A stretch of DNA of 64,000 bases from Sphingobacteriales bacterium (lineage in GTDB: Bacteria; Bacteroidota; Bacteroidia; UKL13-3), in assembly GCA_021299635.1 (NCBI GenBank), contig JAJTFA010000001.1, forward strand, positions 520,391 through 584,390, read 5' to 3'. A model generated the notes under the pieces. The model was not told where the DNA came from, did not search any database, and saw only the letters and a program-made list of their open reading frames with translations. The translations under genes and the position numbers were made by a program. This document shows, piece after piece, positions 13,981-33,095 of this stretch. The stretch's first letter is position 1. Each line of letters begins with the position of its first letter.

Positions 13981-16008
13981 CTATTTTACCTCATTTAACT
14001 TTTCCTGCAAGGCATAAAGTTCATCTCGCAGTCGTGCAGCTTCCATAAATTCCATTTCTTTTGCAGCTCTTATCATTCTTTTTTGGGTTTCATCAATTGC
14101 CTTCTGCAGTTGTTCCTTATTCATATACTGCACTATCGGGTCAGCAGCCATTGTTGCCTCTTCCGGTTCCACATAATAATTTGCTTCATTGCCTTGCTTG
14201 GCATCAGCCACACTCGTTTGTTTCATGATTTCATCCTTGCTCTTGATAACAGTTCGAGGCGTGATGCCATGTGCCAGGTTATACGCAAGTTGCTTCTCGC
14301 GCTTACGTTCATTATCCTCTAATGTTTTTCTTATACTCTCTGTGATGTGATCGGCATATAAAATTACCTTTCCTCTTTCATTTCTAGCAGCACGGCCAAT
14401 AGTTTGTATGAGCGAACTTTCACTGCGTAAAAATCCTTCCTTATCAGCATCCATAATAGCCACAAATGAAACTTCTGGTAAGTCAAGTCCCTCACGCAAT
14501 AAGTTAACACCAATAAGTACATCAAACTTGCCTAATCGCAGGTCACGCAGAATTTCAACACGGTCAAGTGTTTTTACTTCACTGTGTATATACCTGCATT
14601 TAATATTGAGCCTTGCAAGATATTTGGTTAATTCTTCAGCCATGCGCTTGGTAAGGGTGGTAACCAAAACACGATCGCCCATCTTTATTCGCTCATCAAT
14701 TTCATCCATCAAATCATCTACCTGATTAATGCATGGCCTGATTTCAATAACCGGGTCAAGTAAGCCCGTAGGACGAATAATTTGTTCAACCACCACACCT
14801 TCTGATTCTCTTATTTCATAATCGGCCGGTGTAGCGCTCACATAAATAGTTTGTCCAACCAATGCTTCGAATTCATTAAAGGTGAGCGGGCGATTATCCA
14901 ATGCAGAAGGAAGGCGAAAACCATACTCAACCAGATTCTCTTTTCTTGAGCGGTCGCCTCCATACATGCCCCGCACTTGCGGAATCGTAACATGACTTTC
15001 ATCAACCACCAAAAGAAAATCTTTTGGGAAATAATCCAGCAGGCAGAAAGGCCTTTCACCGGGTTTTCTTCTGTCCATGTAGCGGCTATAGTTTTCAATA
15101 CCGCTGCAATAGCCAAGTTCACGCATCATTTCCAGATCAAAATTGGTGCGTTCTTCCAAACGTTTGGCTTCCAAAAATTTCCCAAGCGATTTGAAATAGG
15201 CAATCTGTGCCACCAAGTCATCCTGTATATCTCTAATACTTTGTTGTAGTTGCTCCTTGGGTGTAACATAGATATTGGCAGGGAAGATGGCCACATCTTG
15301 CAAGGTTTCCATTTTCATTCCGCTCACCGGATCAATCATTTGAACATCCTCAATTTCGTTTCCAAAAAACAGGATGCGAAAAGCAAAATCTGCATAGGCA
15401 GGATACACATCCACGGCATCACCCTTCACCCTAAATGTGGCACGTTTAAAATCTGCCGTAGTGCGTGAGTAAAGTGAATCAACCAAGGCATATAACAGTG
15501 TGCTACGGGCTATTTTTTGCCCTTTGTGCAAACGGATAATACTGCTTTCATAATCTTTAGGATTGCCCGCACCATAAATACAACTTACCGATGCCACCAC
15601 AATTACATCACGCCTTCCGGATAAGAGAGAAGAGGTTGTTTTTAAACGCATCTTTTCTATCTCCTCATTGATGTTTAGGTCTTTTTCAATATAGGTATTG
15701 GATTGTGGGATGAATGCCTCAGGCTGGTAGTAATCATAATACGATACAAAATATTCTACCGCGTTGTCAGGAAAAAACTGTTTAAACTCCCCATACAATT
15801 GCGCAACCAGTGTTTTGTTATGGCTGATGATGAGTGTGGGTCTTTGAACTTTCTCAATCACATTTGCTACTGTAAACGTTTTTCCGGAACCTGTTACCCC
15901 CAGCAGCACCTGCGCCTCATCACCACGCGTTATTCCATCCGTCAGCGCTTTTATTGCTTCCGGCTGATCCCCGGTTGGCCGGTAGTCTGATGTGAGTTTA
16001 AAATTCAT
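13981..16008 (-). CDS. uvrB: Excinuclease ABC subunit B
   Basis: PTGDQP, GVTGSGKT, YYDYYQPEA, DESH, QTIGRAARN, C-terminal UVR domain. Confidence 0.98.
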   Translation of the reverse strand: MNFKLTSDYRPTGDQPEAIKALTDGITRGDEAQVLLGVTGSGKTFTVANVIEKVQRPTLIISHNKTLVAQLYGEFKQFFPDNAVEYFVSYYDYYQPEAFIPQSNTYIEKDLNINEEIEKMRLKTTSSLLSGRRDVIVVASVSCIYGAGNPKDYESSIIRLHKGQKIARSTLLYALVDSLYSRTTADFKRATFRVKGDAVDVYPAYADFAFRILFFGNEIEDVQMIDPVSGMKMETLQDVAIFPANIYVTPKEQLQQSIRDIQDDLVAQIAYFKSLGKFLEAKRLEERTNFDLEMMRELGYCSGIENYSRYMDRRKPGERPFCLLDYFPKDFLLVVDESHVTIPQVRGMYGGDRSRKENLVEYGFRLPSALDNRPLTFNEFEALVGQTIYVSATPADYEIRESEGVVVEQIIRPTGLLDPVIEIRPCINQVDDLMDEIDERIKMGDRVLVTTLTKRMAEELTKYLARLNIKCRYIHSEVKTLDRVEILRDLRLGKFDVLIGVNLLREGLDLPEVSFVAIMDADKEGFLRSESSLIQTIGRAARNERGKVILYADHITESIRKTLEDNERKREKQLAYNLAHGITPRTVIKSKDEIMKQTSVADAKQGNEANYYVEPEEATMAADPIVQYMNKEQLQKAIDETQKRMIRAAKEMEFMEAARLRDELYALQEKLNEVK

Positions 16009-16012
16009 CCTG

Positions 16013-16020
16013 CAAATTTA
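16013..16020 (-). promoter_or_regulatory. -7 promoter element for uvrB
   Basis: TAAATTTG on the minus strand, 4 bp before the ATG. Confidence 0.55.
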
Positions 16021-16200
16021 CTTTCATGTATTGATTAACACACTAAAAAAAATAAATAAAACAAAATACTACTTTCTAAATAGATACGCTACTCCCTTCA
16101 ATACTCTAGTATATGAGGTTCGAACTTCATACGTTGAACAAAATATACAGTTACCCTTTGCTGTGAACAAAGTAGGGGCAGGCTTTCTTAAAAAGCCTTA

Positions 16201-16208
16201 TATATTTG
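16201..16208 (+). promoter_or_regulatory. -7 promoter element for the ddl-like gene
   Basis: TATATTTG 6 bp before ATG at 16215. Confidence 0.55.
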
Positions 16209-16214
16209 ATGCCT

Positions 16215-18893
16215 ATGAAGGTAGGAATCTTTTTTGGTGGCATCTCCCGTGAACGGGAAGTGAGCTTTGCCGGTGGCCGCACGGTTTATGACAATCTTGA
16301 TAAAACCTTGTTTGAAGCCGTTCCCATTTTTGTGGATAGCTTTAATAATTTCATCCTGCTCGACTGGCATTTTATTTACAAAGGCAGTATACGCGATTTT
16401 TATCCGCCTGTTTCAGCTTTAAAATCGGCTAAGTATCCGGTGCAGATTTATGCCGAAAGTATCAAATCTGCTTATCAGGATAATGGCTTGAGCCTGGCTG
16501 TTAAACTGGGAAAAGTAATTAAGCCAGATGAACTGAAAGGGCTTATTGATTTTGCTTTTCTTGCCCTGCATGGCAATTTTGGCGAGGATGGTACCATACA
16601 AGGTTTGCTGGAGTGGATGCGCATTCCTTACAGCGGTTCGGGTATCATGCCTTCGGCATTGGGTATGAACAAGCGCTTGCAAAAAAGTTTAATGAAAGAG
16701 GCAGGAATGCATGTGCCCGCTACGTTTAGTTTTTCCAAGCAGGAGTGGTTGCATGGCAACCGCAAAAAGCTGTTTGCTTCGGTTCGCGCATTGTTCAACA
16801 ATCAATGTGTGGTGAAACCCGCCAATCAGGGTTCATCGGTAGGTGTTTCCGTAATCGCTACCGAGCGTTTTGCCGATTTTGAAAAGGCGGTAAACAAATC
16901 GTTTTTTATACAGGAAGTTGGGGCGGCCGAATGGGAAAAACTAAACCGTGAAGAAAAAATCAGTTTTGTGCAGAAGCTGTCTGATGTAAAGGAAGGCATT
17001 GGTTTGCCTTGCCTGGTTAACGATCAAATGATTTACCATCCGGATGAGTTATTTACCTTGTTTGATAAGCAGCTCACTGCTGCTAATAAAATTACCCTTG
17101 AAGGTTATTACAGCGAAACAGAATGTTTGATAGAGGATTTTATAGAGGGCAGAGAGTTTAGTTGTATCGTGGTGCGCAATACCGATGGCACACCTGTTGC
17201 ATTGCCGCCCACAGAAATTGTTAAAGGCAAAGAAGTGTTTGATTACCGCAGCAAATATTTGCCCGGCCTAAGCAGAAAAATTACGCCAATAGATTTGCCG
17301 GTTGCAGATATTGAACGCATACGCAAAGCTTGTGTGCAGTTGTTCGGGTATTTTGGTTTTCATGTATATGCACGCATTGATGGTTTTATAAACAAAGAGG
17401 GCAAGCTGTTTTTAAATGATCCCAATACCACTTCGGGTATGATGCCTTCTTCCTTTTTCTTTCATCAGGCTGCAGAAATCGGATTAAATCCTTCTCAGTT
17501 TTTAACCTATATCATTCGTACCTCGCTGGCAGAGCGCGTGGCTTCTTTATCTACACATGTGCATGAACAAGCCTTGTTAAGGCAGCTGGATGCCAAACTG
17601 CTTGCAGGTAAAAACAAAAAGAGCAGCAAAAAGCGTGTAGCGGTTTTTATGGGTGGCTACAGCACAGAACGACACATATCCGTTGAAAGCGGACGCAATA
17701 TTTATGAAAAGCTGGCTTCTTCTGCCAAGTATGCTCCATTCCCTGTTTTTGTTACCGGCAATGATGCAAAACATGAGTTGTATCTCATTCCCGTTAATAT
17801 CATGCTCAAGGATAATGCAGATGATATTCGCGAAAAGGTGATGCACTTTAAGCGCTCTCCGGTCATAGATAAAATTGCCAAAGAGTGTAAGGGTATTTTA
17901 CAGCAATTTGGCAACGATGCTGCATTGAGTGCACCTAAAAAAATTACCTATGCCGAGTTGGCCAAATTAACCGATGCGGTCTTTATTGCCCTGCATGGCA
18001 GGCCGGGTGAAGATGGTACCGTGCAGAAGGAATTAAACCGCTTGCGCATACCATACAACGGTTCAGGTGTGGCTAGCTCACAAATAACCATAAACAAGTA
18101 TGATACCAACGAGCTACTCAAACAAAAAGGTTTTTTGGTAGCCGATCATATGCTGGTGCACGAAGACAAGTGGAAACAGCAACGCGCAAAAGTTATTGAA
18201 GCTATTGAGAAAATTGGATATCCGCTTATTGCCAAACCTGCCGATGATGGTTGCAGCAGTGCAGTTAAAAAAATTAAAACCAGGGAAGATTTGATAAATT
18301 ATGCCGATGGCGTTTTCAGAAGTTCACTTGCCATCAGTCCTCAACTGGCAGCGCGTTTAAAGCTAAAACCCAAAGAAGAGTTTCCTAAGAAATCTTATTT
18401 TTTGATTGAGCGTTTTGTTGAGAAGGGTAACAAGGCCATACACTTTTTGGAAGTAACCGGTGGCATGCTTACGCATTATCAGAACAACCAGTTGTTGTTT
18501 GAAACCTTTGAACCCAGCGAAACACTGGCCGAAGGTGAAGTGCTGAGTCTGGAAGAAAAATTCCTGGCAGGGCAGGGGCAAAACATTACACCGGCCCGTT
18601 ATGCCAAAACACCTGCTGCACAAAAACTCATTAGCAAACAGGTGCAGCAAACATTAATGAAGGGTGCCAAAGTTTTGGGGGTAGAAGGATATTGCCGCAT
18701 TGATGCATTTGTGCGCGTGATGCCGAAAAACAAAGTTGAGGTAGTGTTTATTGAAGTCAACTCATTACCGGGTATGACTCCGGCAACGGCCATCTTTCAT
18801 CAGTGTGCCTTAAACGGATACAAGCCTTACGAGTTTATTGACCGCATATTGGAATTTGGCACAGCACGCACCCGTAAAAATAAAGTGAGTTAA
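16215..18893 (+). CDS. ddl: D-alanine--D-alanine ligase-family protein with two tandem Ddl modules
   Basis: Two copies of GG.S.ER..S, ALHG..GEDG, IPY.GSG, KPA..G.S, RID and N...GM motifs. Start adjusted to MKVGIFFGG. Confidence 0.88.
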   Translation: MKVGIFFGGISREREVSFAGGRTVYDNLDKTLFEAVPIFVDSFNNFILLDWHFIYKGSIRDFYPPVSALKSAKYPVQIYAESIKSAYQDNGLSLAVKLGKVIKPDELKGLIDFAFLALHGNFGEDGTIQGLLEWMRIPYSGSGIMPSALGMNKRLQKSLMKEAGMHVPATFSFSKQEWLHGNRKKLFASVRALFNNQCVVKPANQGSSVGVSVIATERFADFEKAVNKSFFIQEVGAAEWEKLNREEKISFVQKLSDVKEGIGLPCLVNDQMIYHPDELFTLFDKQLTAANKITLEGYYSETECLIEDFIEGREFSCIVVRNTDGTPVALPPTEIVKGKEVFDYRSKYLPGLSRKITPIDLPVADIERIRKACVQLFGYFGFHVYARIDGFINKEGKLFLNDPNTTSGMMPSSFFFHQAAEIGLNPSQFLTYIIRTSLAERVASLSTHVHEQALLRQLDAKLLAGKNKKSSKKRVAVFMGGYSTERHISVESGRNIYEKLASSAKYAPFPVFVTGNDAKHELYLIPVNIMLKDNADDIREKVMHFKRSPVIDKIAKECKGILQQFGNDAALSAPKKITYAELAKLTDAVFIALHGRPGEDGTVQKELNRLRIPYNGSGVASSQITINKYDTNELLKQKGFLVADHMLVHEDKWKQQRAKVIEAIEKIGYPLIAKPADDGCSSAVKKIKTREDLINYADGVFRSSLAISPQLAARLKLKPKEEFPKKSYFLIERFVEKGNKAIHFLEVTGGMLTHYQNNQLLFETFEPSETLAEGEVLSLEEKFLAGQGQNITPARYAKTPAAQKLISKQVQQTLMKGAKVLGVEGYCRIDAFVRVMPKNKVEVVFIEVNSLPGMTPATAIFHQCALNGYKPYEFIDRILEFGTARTRKNKVS

Positions 18894-24889: not shown

Positions 24890-25564
24890 CTACAATTGCC
24901 AGTTAATGGGCGTAAGATGGTTTGCCTGCAAATAGGTATTGCATGCACTAAAGTGTTTACATCCAAAAAATGCGCCCCTGGCCAAAGGCGAAGGATGCGC
25001 TGCCGTTAATACCAAATGCCTGGAACCATCAATCAGGGTTTGTTTGCTTTGCGCATATTTGCCCCATAGCATAAATACCAGATGTGTTTGTGTGTGCGAT
25101 AAGGTTTCAATCATTTTATCCGTAAAGGTTTCCCACCCTTTGTTTTGATGAGAGCCTGCCTGGCCCGCCCTTACCGTTAAGGTAGCATTTAGCAACAATA
25201 CGCCCTGATCTGCCCACTTACGTAAATTGCCTGAAGCAGGAATGCTGCAACCCAAATCGGTTTTTAGTTCTTTAAAAATATTTTGCAAAGAAGGTGGGAT
25301 GTGTATGCCATCATTTACGCTAAAACACAACCCGTGCGCCTGCCCGGGTCCATGGTATGGGTCCTGACCCAGTATCACTGCTTTTATACGGTTTACCGGT
25401 GTATGGTTTAATGCAGCAAAAATCTGAGAGCCGGGTGGGTATATGGTATAGCCCTGCGCTTTTTCATCCAGTAAAAATTGTTTCAATTGTTTAAAGTACG
25501 GCTTCTCAAATTCATCAGCCAGCAGTTGCTTCCAGCTTTCATCCAATTTTATCTGATTGTTCAT
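24890..25564 (-). CDS. ung: Uracil-DNA glycosylase
   Basis: ILGQDPYH, GLCFSV, PPSL, GVLLLN, HPSPL. Confidence 0.97.
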   Translation of the reverse strand: MNNQIKLDESWKQLLADEFEKPYFKQLKQFLLDEKAQGYTIYPPGSQIFAALNHTPVNRIKAVILGQDPYHGPGQAHGLCFSVNDGIHIPPSLQNIFKELKTDLGCSIPASGNLRKWADQGVLLLNATLTVRAGQAGSHQNKGWETFTDKMIETLSHTQTHLVFMLWGKYAQSKQTLIDGSRHLVLTAAHPSPLARGAFFGCKHFSACNTYLQANHLTPINWQL

Positions 25565-25615
25565 GCGAGGAGAAAGAATGAGTTTTATATATTTGATTTA
25601 GCAAGTAAACCAATT

Positions 25616-27616
25616 ATGAAGGCAAGATATACTTTTTACCTGTTGTTTCTTTCTGCATGGTGCATGGCACAAACTGCAAAAGATTATGCCGTGCAGCTAA
25701 AGGCCGTTGTTTCTCCATCCACACCATCTATTACCATTAGCTGGCCTGCTGATACAAGCGGAGTAAACTATATCGTTTACCGCAAAGCTAAAAACACGGT
25801 TATATGGGCCAATCTATTGGCTACCTTGCCTAAAACCGCTACGCAATACACCGATAATGCGGTGGCAGCGGGCAGTGCTTATGAGTATTATGTGCGCAGA
25901 ACCTACAGCGTTACTACACGCGTGGCACACGGGTATATCTATGCCGGCATACAATTGCCTGAAACCACAACCAAAGGAAAACTGTTATTGCTGGTTGATG
26001 CCAACTATGCGCAACCCCTGGCCGATGAAATTAAAACACTTCAGTTAGATCTGGCTGCCGATGGCTGGGCTGTGCAACGCATGGATATTGCACGCAGCGC
26101 CTCCGTAGCTTCTGTAAAAAATATGATTGTGGCTGCACGTGCAGCCGATACCACACTCCATGCTTTGTTTTTGCTGGGCAGAATACCCGTGCCGTACTCC
26201 GGTGGGTTTAAAGCGGTGAGCGGACAAATTTACCCGCCTGACGGGCATCCGGAGCATGGGGGTGCCTGGCCTGCCGATTTATATTATGGCATGATGGAGG
26301 AAACTTACTGGACAGATACCGATGTAAATGATACCACACCGCAACGCCCGCAAAATGACAATGTGCCGGGTGATGGCAAGTTTGATCAGATGTATTTATA
26401 CCCGCAAGAGGTGCAGCTGCAGGTTGGCAGGGTAGACCTTACCAATATGGCCACCTTTGGAAACAATGATACGCTGCGCATGAAAAGATACCTAAACCGT
26501 GCGCATGATTATAAATATGGCAAACTCACTGTAAACAGGCGTGCGCTGGTTGATGATAATTTCGGGGCCATGAGTGGCGAAGCGTTTGCTGCCTCCGGCT
26601 GGCGCAGTTTTGCTACCATGTATGCCGATTCTGTTTTTGCACGCGATTATTTTGCTTCGCTCAAATCCGGCAATTATCAGTTTGCTTATGGCTGCGGTGC
26701 GGGCTCCTACACCTCATGCAGCGGTGTGGGCAATACCGCCAATTATAACAATGATAGCGTAAACGGTATTTTTAGCATGACCTTTGGCAGCTATTTTGGC
26801 GATTGGGATGCACCGAATAATTTTTTGCGTGCACCACTGTGTGCGCCCAAGCCTATGCTTGCCAGTATGTGGAGCGGCAGGCCGCACTGGCACCTGCACC
26901 ACATGGCCCTTGGCGAAAATATTGGCTATGCGGCCAGGCTCACACAAAACAACTATTTATCTGTTGCAGGTGCCGATGTGTTTGGTTATGTGCATAACAG
27001 TGCACCTACGTTTATACATATTGCACTCATGGGCGACCCCTCCCTGCGTTTGCACCCCATGCAAGCACCTGCGCAGGTAACGGCCACACCCACGGCCGAT
27101 TCTATGCAGGTACAATTAAGCTGGGCTGCTGCTGCCAATGCCGAAGGCTATGTAGTGGTGCGCGCCCGAAACCTGTTTGGCCCGTATAAACCTGTGGCAC
27201 GCATCACCACCACCGATACAGGCTGGACCGACCCTTCACCCGATAATGGCATGAATTATTATATGGTACGTGCCATGCGTTTGGAGCAAACGCCCAGCGG
27301 CAGCTACTACAATTTATCGTTGGGGGTGCCTGATTCTGCCTTTAGCAAAAGTTTTAATGCAGGGGTGCCTGCGCAGCAGGTGGCAGCGCCTGTGCTAACC
27401 GTTTACCCCAACCCCAGCAGCGGGCAGGTATATGTATGGCACAACCATATACCGTTTGCACTTGCGGCCTGGGTATACGACCTGCAGGGCAGGCTGGTGT
27501 TGAGCAAACAATTGCAGGCCGATGACAATAGCCTGCATATTGCCCAACCGGGCATTTATATACTAAAACTTAGCAACAGTGAAACGGAGCAATACAAAAA
27601 GATTGTGGTGAGGTAG
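25616..27616 (+). CDS. T9SS-secreted protein: FN3-like domains flanking a gingipain (C25)-like domain
   Basis: Signal peptide MKARYTFYLLF; LFLLGRIPVP, ADLYY, VGRVD, LMGDPSL C25-like motifs; C-terminal VYPNPSSG...GIYILK...KKIVVR CTD; TATATTTG promoter at 25588-25595. Confidence 0.75.
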   Translation: MKARYTFYLLFLSAWCMAQTAKDYAVQLKAVVSPSTPSITISWPADTSGVNYIVYRKAKNTVIWANLLATLPKTATQYTDNAVAAGSAYEYYVRRTYSVTTRVAHGYIYAGIQLPETTTKGKLLLLVDANYAQPLADEIKTLQLDLAADGWAVQRMDIARSASVASVKNMIVAARAADTTLHALFLLGRIPVPYSGGFKAVSGQIYPPDGHPEHGGAWPADLYYGMMEETYWTDTDVNDTTPQRPQNDNVPGDGKFDQMYLYPQEVQLQVGRVDLTNMATFGNNDTLRMKRYLNRAHDYKYGKLTVNRRALVDDNFGAMSGEAFAASGWRSFATMYADSVFARDYFASLKSGNYQFAYGCGAGSYTSCSGVGNTANYNNDSVNGIFSMTFGSYFGDWDAPNNFLRAPLCAPKPMLASMWSGRPHWHLHHMALGENIGYAARLTQNNYLSVAGADVFGYVHNSAPTFIHIALMGDPSLRLHPMQAPAQVTATPTADSMQVQLSWAAAANAEGYVVVRARNLFGPYKPVARITTTDTGWTDPSPDNGMNYYMVRAMRLEQTPSGSYYNLSLGVPDSAFSKSFNAGVPAQQVAAPVLTVYPNPSSGQVYVWHNHIPFALAAWVYDLQGRLVLSKQLQADDNSLHIAQPGIYILKLSNSETEQYKKIVVR

Positions 27617-27742
27617 GAGGGGATGTTATTGTGCTTTCTGAATGGTCGAGTCAAGTCGGACGTCTTGCAATTGAAAATCATGAGTACCGCTGAAAAACAG
27701 ATTACACCCGCGAATAAATGTAATTACACCTGTGCGTTGGCT

Positions 27743-27758
27743 TCCCGAAGTATCGGGA
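27743..27758. repeat. Short REP-like hairpin at the distal end of the array
   Basis: TCCCGA-agta-TCGGGA flanked by TGTG..GGCTT repeats. Confidence 0.4.
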
Positions 27759-27799
27759 CAAGTTGTGTGGCTTGCAAATGTGTATGACTGCTGCATGGG

Positions 27800-30010
27800 T
27801 TATTCGATTACTCTTTCAAAAATTCCAACAACTTTAAAATTCAACAGGTCGTCTTCCGATAAAACAATGTCTTCGTATTCTTCCAAATTAGATAATGGCT
27901 TAAGTCTTATGGAGTCGTGCTTCCATCCTTCATCAGAAATATTTTTTACACTATGATACTCTTTTACTGTATAGCCTGAACCAAATTCTGAATCATTAAT
28001 TGAGGTTGATTCAACTAATACTATTTTCCCATTTCTTGAACCGCCTTCATCTTGTTTAAATAAACAATATGAACCATTAGGAATTTTATTATTCATTGAT
28101 TCACCAACCACTTTACAAACAAAGTATCCTTTTTTCGCTGCAATATTGAAAGGTGGCTCTATCCATGTTAATTCAGAATGTGATTGCAAGTCGCTGAAAT
28201 TGCCTGCTGCTGCTGAAATGTCTACTAAAGGAATACTATTAACGTATGGTTTAACTTCGTCATTACGGAGAATTCTGAAGGGTATTTGCTTTTTATATGT
28301 TTCAATATTTTCCTTTAAATATTCTCGCAAACTCGGATTACATGCATAAACAAATGTTCCTTTTATGCCGCGATACATAATAGTTTTATAAATATTTATT
28401 ATGTAAGACTTTAGGATATTAATATCAGAAACGCCCTTCTTACCATTTATGTCAAAATATTTTTCTGGGTAAATTATTATAGAGTTTGTCTTTCGGTCAA
28501 AATCTATCTCTTTGCCAAATACCACAGCAGCATAATTTAAATCATATCCTTGTGTTGTATGAATACATCCTATTTCATTAAATGCATTCGATGAATTAAT
28601 CCAATCTTTATCGGTGGAATTCCATTTGAAATTTAAACCATCTAACTCAATGTCAGTTGTGGTAGGTGGTGGTGTAGGATTTAGTTTTGGATTTGATATC
28701 CATGGCCATGAATAACCTGCAATCATCCTGCAAAGGCCGAATTCATTTTCTTTCTTGCTCAACTCGACATGTAAGTCATTGAAATTATCGAAAACGAGCA
28801 ATTCGTAATTCTCTTCTTGATATTTCGTCTTACCTAGTCTATTTATATTTAGTAACTCATCAACAAATTGAATGTAATTGTTGCCTCCCTTGACACGCAT
28901 TTGGGATTTTAATTCAAGACGTAATGAATTTTTATCACTTACTAGTTTATTAAACTTTTCAGAATCAACATCCGAAGGTTTTACTGATTGGGCAGAATCG
29001 TAAAAGAATAACTGATTTTTACTGTTTGCAATTATCCAGTCTAATTCAGTACCACTATCATCTAATCCCAACTTTTGATTATTTTTTTTGAAAGCACCCA
29101 TCCAACTAATATTCTTATACTTCCTGAGTCTATGTGCTTCATCAACTATTAACAAATCGTACTTTTCATTCAACTTGAAAGTATCTGAGGGATTAATAAC
29201 CATAGATGATTTTAGGCCAGGGATTTTTCTAAATACTTTCTCAAGAGATTCTCGAAGAGATGTCATTGCGACCACTAAACCAATTTTGGCATTTGGATAT
29301 TTTGATTTAAATTCCTTTACAAACTTAATTTCTTTTACCTCATCCTCATTATAATCATCTGTTTGTAATTCATCAATATCTGAAGCTAGGAGTTTGATTA
29401 AGTATGCAGCAAGAATTGTTTTGCCAGTACCTGCACTTCCGCTTACAAATATTCTGTTCGATTTTTTAGTTGTAAGACCATCTAAGATTTCTAGAACCGA
29501 ATTATATTGATCTTCATTAAGTGCCTTATAAGGTGAATATTTAAATAGTTCGGAATTTTCAATTTCAGTTAACGATTTGGTTACAATTTTCCGCTCAATA
29601 AGTTTATTCCAAACCTCTTTAAAAAGATTTTTGTAAAGGTCTTGTTGATAATAGTTGTGGTTTATTAATCCATAATTGCCATTTTGAAGGTTGTACGTAC
29701 CTTCAGCTGTGATGTATTGAATTAGATTCGATTCGATGTCAAGTGTTGCAGATTTATTGAATTTGTCTGAACCTATAATTGAAATTGTATCGAGCTTGCA
29801 GCGTTCAGGATTTCCAAGATGGTTTTTAATTCGAAAGAGTGCATTGGTAGATTCACCTACATACGCAGCCTTTATTTTTTCATTTTGAATAAAATAAACT
29901 AAGGGCCATTGATTTTTTACCCAAGGATTCTGCTCAATTTTGTTGAGTGAGTCCTTGTGAAAAGGATATTGTTCCGAAACTTCAATTGATAATTCAAAAG
30001 ACAAACTCAT
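27800..30010 (-). CDS. GIY-YIG nuclease / DUF2075 (Schlafen group 3-like) helicase / S24 LexA-like peptidase fusion
   Basis: N-terminal LVY...YVGES...R.KNH; Walker A GSAGTGKT; DEAH; QMRV; HTTQGYD; YRGIKG; C-terminal AAG, GESM, TVK S24 motifs. Confidence 0.85.
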   Translation of the reverse strand: MSLSFELSIEVSEQYPFHKDSLNKIEQNPWVKNQWPLVYFIQNEKIKAAYVGESTNALFRIKNHLGNPERCKLDTISIIGSDKFNKSATLDIESNLIQYITAEGTYNLQNGNYGLINHNYYQQDLYKNLFKEVWNKLIERKIVTKSLTEIENSELFKYSPYKALNEDQYNSVLEILDGLTTKKSNRIFVSGSAGTGKTILAAYLIKLLASDIDELQTDDYNEDEVKEIKFVKEFKSKYPNAKIGLVVAMTSLRESLEKVFRKIPGLKSSMVINPSDTFKLNEKYDLLIVDEAHRLRKYKNISWMGAFKKNNQKLGLDDSGTELDWIIANSKNQLFFYDSAQSVKPSDVDSEKFNKLVSDKNSLRLELKSQMRVKGGNNYIQFVDELLNINRLGKTKYQEENYELLVFDNFNDLHVELSKKENEFGLCRMIAGYSWPWISNPKLNPTPPPTTTDIELDGLNFKWNSTDKDWINSSNAFNEIGCIHTTQGYDLNYAAVVFGKEIDFDRKTNSIIIYPEKYFDINGKKGVSDINILKSYIINIYKTIMYRGIKGTFVYACNPSLREYLKENIETYKKQIPFRILRNDEVKPYVNSIPLVDISAAAGNFSDLQSHSELTWIEPPFNIAAKKGYFVCKVVGESMNNKIPNGSYCLFKQDEGGSRNGKIVLVESTSINDSEFGSGYTVKEYHSVKNISDEGWKHDSIRLKPLSNLEEYEDIVLSEDDLLNFKVVGIFERVIE

Positions 30011-30336
30011 AATTCATTGTACTTTTTAGCATTACCCTTTGATTTGTCAACTGGATATTTCTCCCCATTCTTTTTTATTTTATCCATCACAATATCCTTT
30101 ATATCAAGCTGATATTTATCTGCAAGAAGAAAAGCATATGCAAAAATATCTGCCAACTCTTCTTTTACCTTTTCCTTGTTTGCTTCATCAGGGCTTTTCC
30201 ATAAAAACAATTCAAGCAACTCACCCGCCTCAACATTTATTGCAAGTGCTAGATCTTTTGGATTGTGGAATTGCTCCCAATCTCTTTCATTCCTGAATTG
30301 TAAGAGTGCTTGTATTATTTCTTTGCTTTCTTTCAT
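30007..30336 (-). CDS. MazG-like nucleotide pyrophosphohydrolase
   Basis: RDWEQFHNPKDLA, EAGELLE, EELAD, KYP; 4-bp ATGA overlap with the helicase gene. Confidence 0.9.
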   Translation of the reverse strand: MKESKEIIQALLQFRNERDWEQFHNPKDLALAINVEAGELLELFLWKSPDEANKEKVKEELADIFAYAFLLADKYQLDIKDIVMDKIKKNGEKYPVDKSKGNAKKYNEL

Positions 30337-30356
30337 GTTGGTATGTTTTTACGCTT

Positions 30357-30493
30357 GCTGGTACTGTTTTGGAGCTTTGCGTTCGGGCGGGCTTTTAAGC
30401 ACTACTCTTGATACGAAGTACCGCACTTCAATTATACACAAAATTGTCAAAAGAAGCACGTTACCCCGCCTGATACAATACCCTTATTATAGC
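30357..30493 (-). repeat. attC-like site 2 (degenerate)
   Basis: Minus strand GCTATAAT...TCAGGCGGGG...CCCGCCCGA...AAAACAGTACCAGC; homologous to site 1; both core boxes mutated. Confidence 0.65.
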
Positions 30494-31039
30494 TCGTTTT
30501 TATTAAGGTCGGCATATGTTTCATCAAGTTTCTTGTTAAATATTTCGTTGTCTAAATTTATGTATTTGTCAAGGTCGTAAGAATGTAATTTGTCCCAGAA
30601 TTTTTGTTCGTCAAAGTTTGGTTTTACTTTATACTCGTCAAACAGTCTCTGGGAGAAAGAAAAAAGTCTGTTTCTATTTCGTAAGGTAGTTATTGTCGTT
30701 TGAGTGTCTGCAGATATATAAACTTTTACCTTATCTGAACCTTTATGTTTGATTAAGAATTGGTCTGTCTTAATAAATACATTAATACTGTCGTCTTGCG
30801 ATTTGAACGCTGGTTTGGTTGCAAAGCTTTCCATTCCCAATTAATTTCTTTGCAGGAATGTGTCCGAAAATTTGTCCCCCTTTTTGAAAGAAATATTCAA
30901 CTTCAATTGTTGAGTCCGTATATGTCAAGTAGCAAATAGTAAAAGGCATTTTTTGTCCTTTGTAAATGCCTTCTTCTAAAGTCTGCCCAAACGAATTTGT
31001 CGTCCAAAGAATAGTTGCTATTAAAAGTATCTGTCTCAT
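30487..31039 (-). pseudogene. Frameshifted secreted hypothetical protein (cassette 2)
   Basis: ORFs 30782..31039 and 30487..30840 join into one 183-aa ORF with a signal peptide if one G of GGG (30836-30838) is removed (...AKKLI-GMESF...). Confidence 0.75.
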
Positions 31040-31060
31040 TTTCGTGTCGTCCTACCATTG

Positions 31061-31193
31061 GCTATAACGTTTTGCAGCTACCCGAAGGGCGGGACTTTTA
31101 CCAAAAAATTGATTTGAAAAACTAATGCTTGATTAACCACAAAACTGTCTTTGGATCTCGAAACCCCGCCTTTTGGGTAGGTGCTGTTATGCC
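31061..31193 (-). repeat. attC-like site 1
   Basis: Minus strand GGCATAAC-AGCACCTACCCAAAAGGCGGG...CCCGCCCTTCGGGTAGCTGC-AAAAC-GTTATAGC; upstream gene's TAA lies inside the first box. Confidence 0.8.
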
Positions 31194-32050
31194 TTCGTTG
31201 TTTTGTCATTCGTTTCAAATTCTTTGAGTGTCTTGCCGTCCTTGTTTTTCCATTCTGTCAGCCCGTTTGCATTACGTCCCATTACCATAACTGCTGCTGT
31301 CGATGGACTACTAAAAATGTAGTCGTCTGAAAATTCAAAGTATTCTCCTTTGTCAACAAGCACTCCTTCGTCAATAAGTTTTTGTCTGTATGTGATGAAG
31401 TTCGGAGTCATTGAATTTACAATTGTAGCTGCTGCTTTGGAGTTTTTGAAAACTACAAAACCATCAGAAGTCGGTTCTCCTTGTCCATCTGCACCACGAG
31501 CAGCTTTAATATAAAATGATTCTTGTTTTTGTTTAGGTTTAAATTCTCTTTTCTCGTCAAACACTTTATGTCCGAGTGTATTTACAAGCATTTTTATGTA
31601 CTCAATAAATTCTTCCATTTCAGCTCTGTCAGATTCAGAAATTGAAGATTGAGTCGGAATTATTGAATTGTCTACCGTGTAGCGATTAGCAGACTTTGCA
31701 ATATCGTGAAGGCGATTTTCTAAATATTTTATGTGAGCTTTGTTTAAGTTTTCGTCCTTGCTTATAAAAACAATTGCTTCGTTCCAGAAATCCTTTTGAG
31801 TCAACTGTTGATTTAGACGTTTTAAAATTGATTCGGCTTCACCTATATAAACTTGGTCTTTCCCCGTATCGTCTTTTCCAAAGAGTAAATAAACTCCGGT
31901 GCTAGTCAGGTCATCACGGTCTGCACAATCCTTAATTTTAATTCTCGGAATTTTATATGCTTTTCCAGACCAGTTGGAAAGTTCACAACTCATTCGTCCG
32001 TTAGGTTCTCCGTCAATGAGAAATATTTTTATTGTCTTTCCGAATTTCAT
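31187..32050 (-). CDS. GIY-YIG nuclease with C-terminal DUF4357 domain
   Basis: GVYLL...VYIGEAE..KRL; KYLE; C-terminal FSSPSTAAVMVMGRNANGLTEWK. Confidence 0.88.
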   Translation of the reverse strand: MKFGKTIKIFLIDGEPNGRMSCELSNWSGKAYKIPRIKIKDCADRDDLTSTGVYLLFGKDDTGKDQVYIGEAESILKRLNQQLTQKDFWNEAIVFISKDENLNKAHIKYLENRLHDIAKSANRYTVDNSIIPTQSSISESDRAEMEEFIEYIKMLVNTLGHKVFDEKREFKPKQKQESFYIKAARGADGQGEPTSDGFVVFKNSKAAATIVNSMTPNFITYRQKLIDEGVLVDKGEYFEFSDDYIFSSPSTAAVMVMGRNANGLTEWKNKDGKTLKEFETNDKTTKA

Positions 32051-32056
32051 TATTTA

Positions 32057-32767
32057 TTAAGTATTAAGTTCACAAATTACAGGCAGGTGATCGCTGTAGT
32101 TTATCCATTTTTCAATGTCCGCTACTTCAAAATTTCTCAGGCCTTTTTCAATTTCTCTTGATGCGAAAATATAATCAATGTGGTATGGTTTTGCTCTATT
32201 TCTTTGGAGAAAAAAAGTCGGTTTTGATTCTTTTCCTTGTTCTTCATTAAAATAGGAATGATACAAACTATTAATGTTCATTTTTGATAAATCATTTACT
32301 ACGTCCGAATGATTCCACCATCTATCCCATTCATCCCAAATAGTATTACTATTAAAATCCCCAGCAAGAATTATTTTCGTAAATTTTGATTTGTTTATTT
32401 CTAGATATTTCCACAATTGTCCGATGTAGCCAAAGTTCGGTGATTTGTTTTGACTTGTCCAAATACTCAATAATTGAAAATCATTATTCACAAGACAAGG
32501 CAAGAAGTGCTTTACTACATGGTCTTTATAGTTAGCACTCCAGTTAATTAATTCAATAGTCGTTTTGTTTTTTGCGAAGATCCCAAGTCCTTTATTTTTA
32601 TTGTCGCCTTTCCAAAGGTGATTTCCTGCCCAAGAAATATAATGTTGATGTTTTGATAATTCTGGATTTTCACATTCTTGGATAATATAAAGGTCAGCAT
32701 TAAGGTCTGAAAGATGTTCAAACTTATTCCTTAACGCACCATTACAATTCCAAGTCACTATTTTCAT
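32057..32767 (-). CDS. Endonuclease/exonuclease/phosphatase (EEP) family protein
   Basis: MKIVTWNCNG, IIQE, AGDFN, HIDYIF, SDHLP motifs. Confidence 0.9.
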   Translation of the reverse strand: MKIVTWNCNGALRNKFEHLSDLNADLYIIQECENPELSKHQHYISWAGNHLWKGDNKNKGLGIFAKNKTTIELINWSANYKDHVVKHFLPCLVNNDFQLLSIWTSQNKSPNFGYIGQLWKYLEINKSKFTKIILAGDFNSNTIWDEWDRWWNHSDVVNDLSKMNINSLYHSYFNEEQGKESKPTFFLQRNRAKPYHIDYIFASREIEKGLRNFEVADIEKWINYSDHLPVICELNT

Positions 32768-32791
32768 TAATTATTCTGTCTTTTTACAATG

Positions 32792-32900
32792 AGGCATAAC
32801 TAGCTTATTCACGCTATACATGTTCGTATATACATCCAAATTTGGGTGTATATGCGCTAATATGCATATGTTGTTTACCAATATGTATGCCTGTTATAGG
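32792..32900 (-). other. Array leader / attI-like recombination site
   Basis: GTTATGCCT box (32800-32792) preceded by a 26-bp near-perfect palindrome (32828-32853); not homologous to the attC-like repeats. Confidence 0.5.
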
Positions 32901-32985
32901 GTAGCTAAGCGCCCTTATCCCAAAAATACCATTTTTCGCATATAAACAATTAGGTTTATTTGCTGCAGTGGCTTTTACTTGCCAT

Positions 32986-33018
32986 AAAAAAAGCCACCCT
33001 GTTTATTGAGGGCGGCTT
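32986..33018 (-). terminator. Intrinsic terminator after tRNA-Arg
   Basis: AAGCCGCCCT-caataaac-AGGGTGGCTT-TTTTT on the minus strand. Confidence 0.8.
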
Positions 33019-33095
33019 TGGTGGTCTCGACAGGATTCAAACCTGTAACCTTCTGATCCGTAGTCAGATGCTCTATTCAGTTGAGCTACGAAACC
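33019..33095 (-). tRNA. tRNA-Arg(ACG)
   Basis: GGTTTCG acceptor stem pairs with CGAGACC; anticodon arm TCTGA-CT ACG GA-TCAGA; T arm GGTTTGAATCC; encoded CCA. Confidence 0.95.

Follow-up and report, generated by a model that had tools for sequence, protein, structure and literature searches.

Integrons hold co-oriented, tightly packed gene cassettes, whose genes are diverse and often orphans. Cassettes are recombined at attC sites, imperfect hairpins with a 5′ ...TAAC and a 3′ GTTA... box that are used as bottom strands, and the stop codon often lies in the 5′ box. The primary site adjoins the recombinase gene. Crossover takes place within the 3′ box (G/TT), so that cassettes start with TT, and the insertion characteristic of IntI, an additional domain near patch III of the tyrosine recombinase, is thought to be essential for recognizing folded attC sites. 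Clusters of attC sites without an integron integrase are termed CALIN in the accessible part of Cury et al. (2016). As far as the available text of the literature goes, only In0 elements and one complete integron, in Salinibacter, have been described in Bacteroidetes, and the accessible part of a 2024 preprint places Bacteroidota among the clades previously found without integrons. The literature searched yielded no earlier description of the Bacteroidota cassette system reported below.

The DNA analysed here, a stretch of 64,000 nucleotides (the window), contains at positions 27618–33017 an AT-rich insertion of 5.4 kb that adjoins a tRNA-Arg gene. Its GC content is 0.32–0.38 (1-kb bins, 28001 to 33000) compared with 0.42–0.50 in the flanks, and all genes of the array region are co-oriented, with two homologous structured repeats of ~150 bp between them. 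We consider it very probable that this insertion represents an orphan cassette array, without an integrase, of a Bacteroidota-wide, integron-like site-specific recombination system. The array is short and partly decayed. It comprises an attI-like site, the 5′ edge of which lies about 140 bp downstream of the tRNA, and three cassettes (Table 1); cassettes 1 and 2 end in attC-like sites of about 126 nt from box to box, or about 150 nt as modelled. The order of tRNA-Arg, leader and cassettes with homologous spacers, read by the initial annotation from the sequence, is confirmed, as is the lack of a local integrase: no tyrosine recombinase was found within the window.

Table 1. Features of the cassette array and its borders (window coordinates)
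Feature	Position	Strand	Basis or remark
tRNA-Arg, anticodon ACG	33019–33095	-	ARAGORN; Rfam tRNA, 65 bits
attI-like primary site (site 0)	32797–32880	-	Inside the 'leader' of the initial annotation
Cassette 1	31068–32799	-	From TT of site-0 GTTA to G of site-1 GTTA
EEP-family gene, cassette 1	32057–32767	-	Pfam
DUF4357 / PDC-S14 gene, cassette 1	31187–32050	-	Pfam; PADLOC PDC-S14, 405 bits
attC-like site 1	31043–31195 (model match); box-to-box core about 31065–31190	-	Model R1, 144 bits
Cassette 2, coding part	30487–31039	-	ORF list
Signal-peptide ORF, cassette 2	30782–31039 (85 aa)	-	ORF list
Second overlapping frame, cassette 2	30487–30840 (117 aa)	-	ORF list
attC-like site 2, decayed	30340–30495	-	Model R1, 118 bits; alignment with site 1
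Cassette 3, truncated	27763–30336	-	Pfam; own 3′ site missing in window
MazG-like gene, cassette 3	30007–30336	-	Pfam
SLFN-g3 helicase with C-terminal S24 peptidase, cassette 3	27800–30010	-	Pfam
Distal junction of insertion	27618–27762	.	Common to neither the G033 cassette nor the G004 empty locus

Sites 1 and 2 can be aligned over about 155 nt with a mean column identity of 76% (the alignment tool's figure). The attC plan that had been ascribed to these spacers is borne out: the 5′ TAAC-type box contains the stop codon, a GTTA box follows about 126 nt further on and, as read from the sequence, the next ATG lies 26–30 nt beyond it. The boxes named in the initial annotation are present as such in site 1 (CATAAC and GTTA), while site 2 has them only as variants, TAAT and the degenerate AGTAC (versus CGTTA). 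Site 1 folds with z = -4.4 on the strand opposite the genes versus -1.1 on the other strand. Site 2 is decayed, with a broken outer stem and fold z-scores of -0.2 and -0.7. Copies of site 1 in other genera reach 96% identity. Read depth spikes at site 1, 20–50-fold in three of four lake metagenome runs and about 3-fold in the fourth (X18).

Only seven sites in the 2.3-Mb genome of this organism match the repeat model (R1; E 4e-20 to 5e-27); because of this small number and the covarying stem, the matches are more than chance. None of the seven has an Rfam 15 match at E ≤ 1. The covariance-model search proposed by the initial annotation found the family flanking varied genes elsewhere, in 55 of 61 relatives, with up to 40 copies per genome clustered into arrays, and, in a sample taken across the phylum, in 46 of 121 genomes. 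The repeats form a covarying hairpin family and, in keeping with attC sites, have AAC/GTT-type outer boxes and an imperfect stem of 23 pairs. In an alignment of 86 copies, which was fitted to the model and is thereby biased in favour of the modelled structure, compensatory changes occur in 19 of the 23 stem pairs, standard pairs fill 95.1% of pair cells compared with 70.0% in shuffles, and 425 cells are changed on both sides compared with 137.5. None of 500 shuffles reached any of the stem measures, and slid-control stems were 38–57% paired. The 95.1% applies to the strand opposite the genes, on which G:T cells outnumber A:C cells (249 versus 42) and two pairs are G:T in 86/86 copies; on the coding strand of the same copies the paired fraction is 84.6%. 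The strand preference of single-site folds is mixed across sites. The bias computed over the 86 copies is towards the bottom strand, the one used by integron attC sites. The sequence of the repeat is conserved as well, which is atypical for attC, where conservation of structure rather than sequence is expected.

Repeat arrays in the relatives lie directly downstream of one tyrosine recombinase family, on the same strand; the recombinase linked to other arrays that had been postulated does exist in other Bacteroidota, as a distinct family. Across 80 named loci fetched with this recombinase, all 82 model hits are on the strand that co-orients the cassettes, and 80 lie downstream of the recombinase despite about 2.3 times more upstream sequence searched. 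At least one hit was present in 32 of the 49 loci having at least 1 kb downstream of the recombinase, the remaining 17 having none, and the first hit is located 340–6307 bp past the end of the recombinase match. Sites occur in all 38 recombinase-carrying genomes among the 61 relatives, and the six relatives without sites all lack the recombinase. Sites are also present in 17 of the 23 recombinase-less relatives, just as integrase-less arrays are common in integrons. Recombinase-linked arrays reach Flavobacterium, Chryseobacterium, Pedobacter, Chitinophaga and Algoriphagus, with a plasmid-borne platform in Chryseobacterium. The family is not uniform, since in G184 the geometry appears divergent and the recombinase is shorter.

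The linked recombinase (345–405 aa) is a relative of Xer and IntI, with an additional domain at its N terminus, an extension of about 90 aa. Against the integron-integrase model TIGR02249 it scores 208–223 bits, below the cut-off of 265, and its match falls into two parts, with model positions about 182–237 left out; the region of the IntI-specific insertion comprises 15 residues, compared with 57 in VchIntIA (2a3v). TIGR02249 matches above the cut-off were found in 0/61 relatives. The assembly containing the window (94.5% complete) holds neither a gene nor a fragment of the linked family, and the locus is therefore an orphan array. Three tyrosine recombinases are located in this assembly at C1:80k, 405k and 439k, the window being C1:520391-584390; two of the genome's own genes are Xer-like (311 and 318 aa).

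An ordinary CALIN would account for the locus if standard attC sites had been left or were serviced by canonical IntI and the Xer-like neighbour in relatives were incidental. The sites do have the attC plan in common (TAAC/GTTA boxes, imperfect hairpin, bottom-strand bias and GTT crossover), integron reviews, in their accessible parts, count Bacteroidota among the integron-bearing phyla, canonical IntI is present in 38 of the 121 phylum-sample genomes, and R1 weakly detects sites beside such genes. These detections around 16 canonical IntI genes, however, amount to just 11 hits in 6 loci, at 17–35 bits with E up to 0.5, and in five of the 6 loci, which belong to other classes, they are on the divergent side of IntI. 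Strong sites (50–150 bits) are instead polar to the insertion-less recombinase in 80/82 cases, and genomes with both recombinase types (G160, G151 and others) have them beside the insertion-less one. Moreover, canonical IntI is found in none of the 61 relatives, yet sites are found in 55, and the attI-like site adjoins the gene of the insertion-less recombinase on its downstream side. We therefore regard a CALIN of the ordinary kind as unlikely.

The segment described initially as a leader contains a site of its own. Since a homologue starts 25–77 bp past the end of the recombinase match in 30/80 named loci, this site is attI-like; the hit is absent in the other 50 loci, some of which have too little downstream sequence. 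This site 0 shows an internal palindrome (about 32825–32856) followed by the GTTA box (32800–32797), and 60 nt of it are 88% identical to a stretch that abuts the recombinase gene of congener G004 (G004:C95:123-182). In relatives the site adjoins a recombinase gene; no recombinase neighbours the copy in the window.

As in integrons, the GTTA box is the point at which two natural junctions break. Congener G002 is 89% identical to window 32797–32935, up to the box, and diverges right after it, and the cassettes of G030:C6 and of the window are identical from the TT of the box (window 32799) over a 25-nt cassette start. Metagenome contigs that share site 1 part ways at its two boxes, with similarity breaking at 31065 and 31189–31191 in four runs. 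Among assembled contigs neither an excision circle nor a clean deletion joint turned up; in runs X18 and X19 one joint between 30396 and 31133, together with 35 other letters, is suggestive but ambiguous. These exact breaks at the boxes where differing genes join speak against a structured intergenic repeat without a recombination role (REP- or MITE-like, a terminator or an RNA motif) that accumulates between genes. Such an element would fit the high copy number, the abundance in lake metagenomes, the depth spike at site 1, the hairpin-forming sequence located between convergently packed ORF ends, and a conservation between genera unusual for attC. Yet it would not explain the strict strand and side polarity towards one recombinase family or the 38/38 co-occurrence at the genome level, and no Rfam family matches; we judge it very improbable.

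Cassette genes recur in differing contexts in other genera at 85–91% identity. The cassette start shared with G030:C6 leads there straight into the DUF4357 gene, EEP being absent (91% identity), and the EEP and DUF4357 pair is found in G065 at 78% identity. DUF4357 had been named together with GIY-YIG in the initial annotation; Pfam calls only the former. The secreted ORF proposed for cassette 2 keeps its signal peptide but is not a single ORF, as two overlapping frames are present. Neither has a Pfam or PADLOC match, and the 117-aa query gave no homologue at E ≤ 1e-5 in 118 other family genomes; the sequence is also present on contigs from independent metagenome runs. Cassette 2 is an orphan, and possibly one broken gene of a secreted protein. 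The MazG-helicase module occurs in another genus (G033) at 89% identity, with a shortened site copy about 110 bp past its stop (a weak R1 match of 16.7 bits), and in four further genomes at 67–73%; by this comparison it is a cassette that has lost its own site. Because the 5′ untranslated stretch is not common to G033, the 5′ boundary of cassette 3 maps to no box. Homology to G033 stops at 27763, and that to G004 restarts at 27617. Other cassettes of the genome encode lipocalin-like, SDR, TMEM175-like, DUF1801, transglutaminase-like and orphan proteins. Contrary to what had been supposed, content is mixed and not mainly defence: a strong match to a defence candidate (PDC-S14) is limited to the DUF4357 protein.

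Presence and content of the array differ among congeners: G004 has an empty locus of 466 bp compared with 5.4 kb in the window, and G002 has the same site 0 and then different genes. The initial annotation would have been refuted by a repeat family confined to this locus and by a locus invariant across strains, and neither was observed. The tRNA-Arg is an upstream neighbour outside the recombination system, and anchoring at a tRNA is not a property of that system. Least likely of all is a genomic island that a lost phage- or ICE-type integrase inserted at the 3′ side of tRNA-Arg, with the repeats as passengers, as an AT-rich block directly downstream of the tRNA and missing from G004 might suggest, since the tRNA 3′ end has no second copy anywhere in the window at ≤3 mismatches (only the tRNA itself matches), no integrase or remnant was found, different genes follow the same first site in G002, and a tRNA lies in the fetched flanks of 7/60 recombinase loci and within 1 kb of the recombinase in 0/60.

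For the integron-like array we propose the following mechanism. In relatives, the gene that directly precedes the attI-like site, on the cassette strand, encodes the recombinase, which probably joins the folded non-coding strand of a cassette site to the attI-like site or to another cassette site. Crossover at GTT within the 3′ box would lead to cassette insertion, excision and shuffling as in integrons. Gene neighbourhood points to the linked recombinase as the catalyst; the substrate is presumably single-stranded, and the direction of expression is likewise presumed. As its own assembly lacks the linked recombinase, the window array may be frozen and decaying, or may be serviced only by a recombinase from unassembled or incoming DNA.

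The locus is real, and the system is of the integron type, with the insertion-less recombinase as a new feature; it appears to be widespread in Bacteroidota. Apart from the recombinase, with its missing insertion, its TIGR02249 score and its N-terminal domain, the long sites, whose sequence including loop motifs is strongly conserved across genera, set it apart from integrons and CALIN, as does the recombinase gene, which is upstream of and co-oriented with the cassettes rather than divergent. In Treponema and Chlorobium, 'inverted' chromosomal integrons also have intI co-oriented with the cassettes, but their integrases, as generally described, carry the IntI insertion. Among solved structures the linked recombinase best matches Xer proteins (XerC/XerD and archaeal XerA; PDB 5hxy, 4a8e and 1a0p; XerA 141 bits), it scores 213–223 bits against NCBIfam NF040815, around the cut-off of 220, and it shares their simple architecture without the IntI insertion. 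Unlike Xer, it adjoins hairpin-site arrays and not a dif-like chromosome-resolution context, and it bears the N-terminal extension.

With slightly less than even confidence, we suggest that Bacteroidota possess an integron lineage of their own, in which hairpin-site cassettes are captured by an Xer-like recombinase that never had, or has lost, the IntI insertion, and in which the extra N-terminal domain and the conserved loop motifs may serve as arm-type contacts instead. This lineage, and not the canonical integron, would then be the principal platform for cassettes in the class, plasmid-borne copies included, and would have been missed by standard integron surveys because its recombinase and its sites both fail their models.

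If confirmed, integron-type gene capture would be far commoner in Bacteroidota than reported. The system would offer a natural test of the need for the IntI insertion in recombining folded sites, a question that bears on the origin of integron integrases from Xer-like ancestors, and with the model, cassettes could be retrieved by the thousand, among them defence candidates such as PDC-S14, from metagenomes of freshwater and other origin.

The array in the window is orphan and partly decayed; it consists of an attI-like site, two attC-like spacers and three cassettes, with every gene on the minus strand. GC content is 0.32-0.38 across 28001-33000 compared with 0.42-0.50 in the surroundings (1-kb bins). 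As determined by alignment, spacers 1 and 2 are homologous: both open with a TAAC-type box, within which the preceding gene has its stop codon, and are closed ~126 nt past this first box by a GTTA-type box, degenerate in spacer 2, with the ATG of the next gene 26-30 nt further on. The layout seen in the initial annotation, co-oriented AT-rich genes with homologous TAAC/GTTA-boxed spacers between them, is borne out. Folded as single-stranded DNA, spacer 1 yields z = -4.4 on the strand opposite the genes versus -1.1 on the other strand, and the fold of spacer 2 is no better than background.

Features of the array and its immediate flanks in the window
Feature	Position or extent	Strand
tRNA-Arg(acg)	33019-33095	-
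'Leader' between tRNA-Arg and EEP gene	250 bp	-
EEP-family protein gene	32057-32767	-
DUF4357 protein gene	31187-32050	-
Spacer 1	between DUF4357 gene and signal-peptide ORF	-
Signal-peptide ORF, two overlapping frames	30782-31039 and 30487-30840	-
Spacer 2	between signal-peptide ORF and MazG-like gene	-
MazG-like protein gene	30007-30336	-
SLFN-group-3 helicase, 736 aa, C-terminal S24 peptidase	27800-30010	-
T9SS-tailed gene, convergent to array	25478-27616	+

The spacers belong to a larger site family. BLAST and nhmmer identified seven copies in the genome under study (2.31 Mb in 13 contigs, completeness 94.5%). Two of them are those of the window, one lies at C1:585670 on the same contig, 1.3 kb past the window end, and four form an array on contig C8 that runs off the contig end. 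Their alignment gives a hairpin of 23 pairs, 14 of which show compensatory changes, and a covariance model of the family (R1) recovers exactly the same seven copies in this genome. A search of other Bacteroidota genomes with such a model, as the initial annotation had proposed, located the family in 55 of 61 relatives, with up to 40 mostly clustered copies per genome, and in 46 of the 121 genomes, each at least 90% complete, of a phylum-wide sample. In 86 copies from many genomes, standard pairs occupy 95.1% of the pair cells on the modelled strand, which is opposite the genes, compared with 70.0% in shuffled and 38-57% in slid controls and 84.6% for the complement, and both-sided changes occur at 19 of the 23 pairs; this alignment was fitted to R1 and so favours the modelled structure. 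On the modelled strand versus the complement there are 249 G:T cells against 42 A:C cells, and two G:T pairs are invariant. No matching family was retrieved when the sites were searched against Rfam. In the alignment of site copies (A6), a stretch of ~20 nt after the 3' box (window 31043-31064) is common to many, not all, copies, and a short, twice repeated loop motif likewise occurs in many but not all of them. Conservation of sequence outside the stem is not typical of attC sites; here it might reflect extra protein contacts.

A search with the integron-integrase model TIGR02249 gave no match over the cut-off among the 61 relatives. Many of their arrays are adjoined by a tyrosine recombinase of 345-405 amino acids. 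Two whole-protein examples, both with Phage_int_SAM_4 and Phage_integrase domains, score 208 and 223 bits with TIGR02249 (cut-off 265) and 213 and 223 bits with NF040815 (cut-off 220). The TIGR02249 match falls into two stretches, with model positions ~182-237 left out. Aligned to the Vibrio integrase 2a3v, the linked recombinase places 15 residues opposite chain residues 186-242, the location of the IntI-specific insertion, and its best match among solved structures is the archaeal XerA. Searching the species-representative genome collection with an alignment of 11 linked recombinases (A5) returned at least 593 loci. Named hosts include Flavobacterium (among them F. psychrophilum DSM 3660), Kaistella, Chryseobacterium, Pedobacter, Pseudopedobacter, Chitinophaga, Algoriphagus, Cyclobacterium and Galbibacter, and further loci lie in many Bacteroidales and other MAGs. 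The 80 recombinase loci kept contain 82 R1 matches, all on the strand that gives cassettes and recombinase the same orientation; 80 of them are downstream of the recombinase, even though the upstream sequence searched was ~2.3x larger. The initial annotation had suggested looking for a tyrosine recombinase beside other arrays, and one such family is linked to them. At least one R1 match occurs in 32 of the 49 loci with 1 kb or more of downstream sequence. Among the 61 relatives, the recombinase (A5, E<=1e-60) is present in 38, all of which also have sites; 17 of the 23 relatives without it keep sites and six have none. In the assembly under study the linked type was not found, the search returning only two Xer-like genes and an unrelated 372-aa recombinase. 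On the Chryseobacterium plasmid NZ_CP041688.1, the recombinase, annotated as 'site-specific tyrosine recombinase/integron integrase', has four sites behind it, interspersed with small co-oriented genes. Within this plasmid array, in the region 15759-17713 of the fetched stretch L137, there is also a group II intron reverse transcriptase gene on the strand opposite the cassettes that ends near a site at 17562-17713. Group IIC introns target attC sites, and the placement is reminiscent of them.

Window 32797-32880, within the 'leader', is homologous to a conserved sequence that begins 25-77 bp past the end of the recombinase match in 30 of the 80 loci. It comprises a palindrome, then a TATA-rich stretch and then GTTA. 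Two more loci carry it 0.9-1.1 kb downstream of the recombinase, a further copy lies 7 kb downstream in one locus, and no copy was detected in the upstream flanks of the recombinase loci. The congener G004 has a recombinase gene, abutted by a 60-nt stretch with 88% identity to the attI-like site. By this homology, the 'leader' contains the attI-like primary site of the array. A second orphan copy in the genome under study (C1:586964-587048) heads a one-cassette array at C1:585670-587048 (L002 7671-9049), 1.3-2.7 kb past the window end. Its cassette, which is closed by the strong C1:585670 site (150 bits), encodes a secreted transglutaminase-like protein of 373 aa. This array is divergent from a mltG-like gene; a short remnant ORF lies between its site and a convergent S41-type peptidase gene, and just upstream of its attI-like site (L002 9193-9275) there is a weak Flavo-1 match (25.9 bits, gathering score 42).

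Comparison of the tRNA-Arg locus across strains, as recommended in the initial annotation, disclosed an empty locus in G004 and different genes behind the attI-like site in a second congener, G002. The flanks are ~80% identical in G004, which has only 466 bp between the T9SS gene and tRNA-Arg; window 27618-33017 is therefore an insertion. In G002 the flank is 97% identical and the attI-like site is shared at 89%, and the two genomes diverge immediately past its GTTA box, beyond which G002 carries another gene (264 aa), then a site of the family (70 bits) and a T9SS protein of 449 aa. In G002 an extra 677 bp (L124 2572-3247) separate tRNA-Arg from the attI-like site; they encode a 138-aa small membrane-type protein that the window lacks. 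Other genera have copies of site 1 with up to 96% identity. In another genus (G030), a DUF4357 gene 91% identical to that of the window occurs without the EEP gene, preceded by 25 nt identical to the window after the attI-like site's box, with identity starting from TT. It sits right behind a housekeeping-type 448-aa gene and its site is truncated; the unit is a cassette on its own, not part of an array. In G033, also of another genus, the MazG-helicase pair has 89% identity and is followed by a shortened, decayed site copy. In the window R1 finds no third site after the helicase at E<=1, and homology to G033 stops 37 bp past the helicase stop, before the site; the third cassette has therefore lost its site. 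Anchoring at a tRNA, which the initial annotation had read as part of the system, is rejected as a general trait.

The presumption of mostly defence-like cargo was not borne out as a general trait either: content is mixed, as generally in integrons, and the strong defence-candidate match is that of the DUF4357 protein to the PADLOC candidate PDC-S14 (405 bits). In PADLOC the helicase has only weak defence matches, and among 118 family genomes no homologue was found for the 117-aa query from cassette 2. Further cassettes of the genome encode lipocalin-like, short-chain dehydrogenase, TMEM175-like, DUF1801, transglutaminase-like and unassigned proteins. The C8 array (C8:56135-59665; L001 11136-14666) has at least four sites, and its cassettes specify the lipocalin-like protein, the SDR, two small split secreted ORFs plus a 215-aa ORF, the TMEM175-like protein and DUF1801. 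It leaves the contig on the upstream side, where relatives have the recombinase gene; at its distal end (L001 10256-10533) it borders on tRNA-Leu(gag), and a tandem repeat (65-bp unit, 3.2 copies, 98% matches) overlaps the 5' end of that tRNA gene.

Half or more of the sampled words of the island were present in 19 lake or freshwater metagenome runs (~15 studies). Four runs yielded contigs with long stretches free of differences, none of the listed pieces spanning the whole stretch. Summed depth at site 1 is 20-50x that of the flanks in three of these runs and ~3-fold in X18, because many other contigs share site 1; these diverge at 31065 and 31189-31191, the two boxes. No clean excision joint was seen among the assembled metagenome contigs. 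In X18 and X19, a contig joins window 30396 (in site 2) to 31133 (in site 1) with 35 other letters in between. This ambiguous joint is either a variant without cassette 2 that carries a hybrid site or another locus resembling both halves. The remaining contig joints look like sites of other organisms.

A canonical IntI was found neither in the assembly under study nor in the 61 relatives. In the phylum-wide sample, 38 of the 121 genomes have a full-length TIGR02249 match over the cut-off, nearly all outside the window's class. Near 16 canonical IntI genes there are 11 weak R1 matches (17-35 bits, E up to 0.5), spread over six loci; in five of these they have the classical geometry and lie on the divergent side of IntI. 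Where a genome has both recombinase types, as G160 and G151 do, its strong sites are beside the insertion-less recombinase. The site family described here therefore has the attC plan in common with canonical integrons, yet it forms a subfamily of its own that is conserved in sequence and linked to another enzyme.

According to the IntegronFinder 2.0 preprint, Bacteroidetes earlier had In0 only, plus one complete integron in Salinibacter; a 2024 preprint places Bacteroidota among clades in which no integrons had been detected before, and reviews list them among phyla having some integrons. A tyrosine-recombinase classification calls the insertion 'not fully conserved' in the integron-like subgroup. 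A literature search outside most subscription journals, supplements and per-genome IntegronFinder tables, in which CALINs or In0 of the phylum might be recorded, gave no description of a Bacteroidota system of integron type that uses a recombinase of this kind. The integron-like reading of the initial annotation is supported by the boxes, the hairpin family, the linked recombinase, the attI-like site and the junctions at GTTA. These results also extend it, and they support the view that the array represents a Bacteroidota-type variant of the integron.
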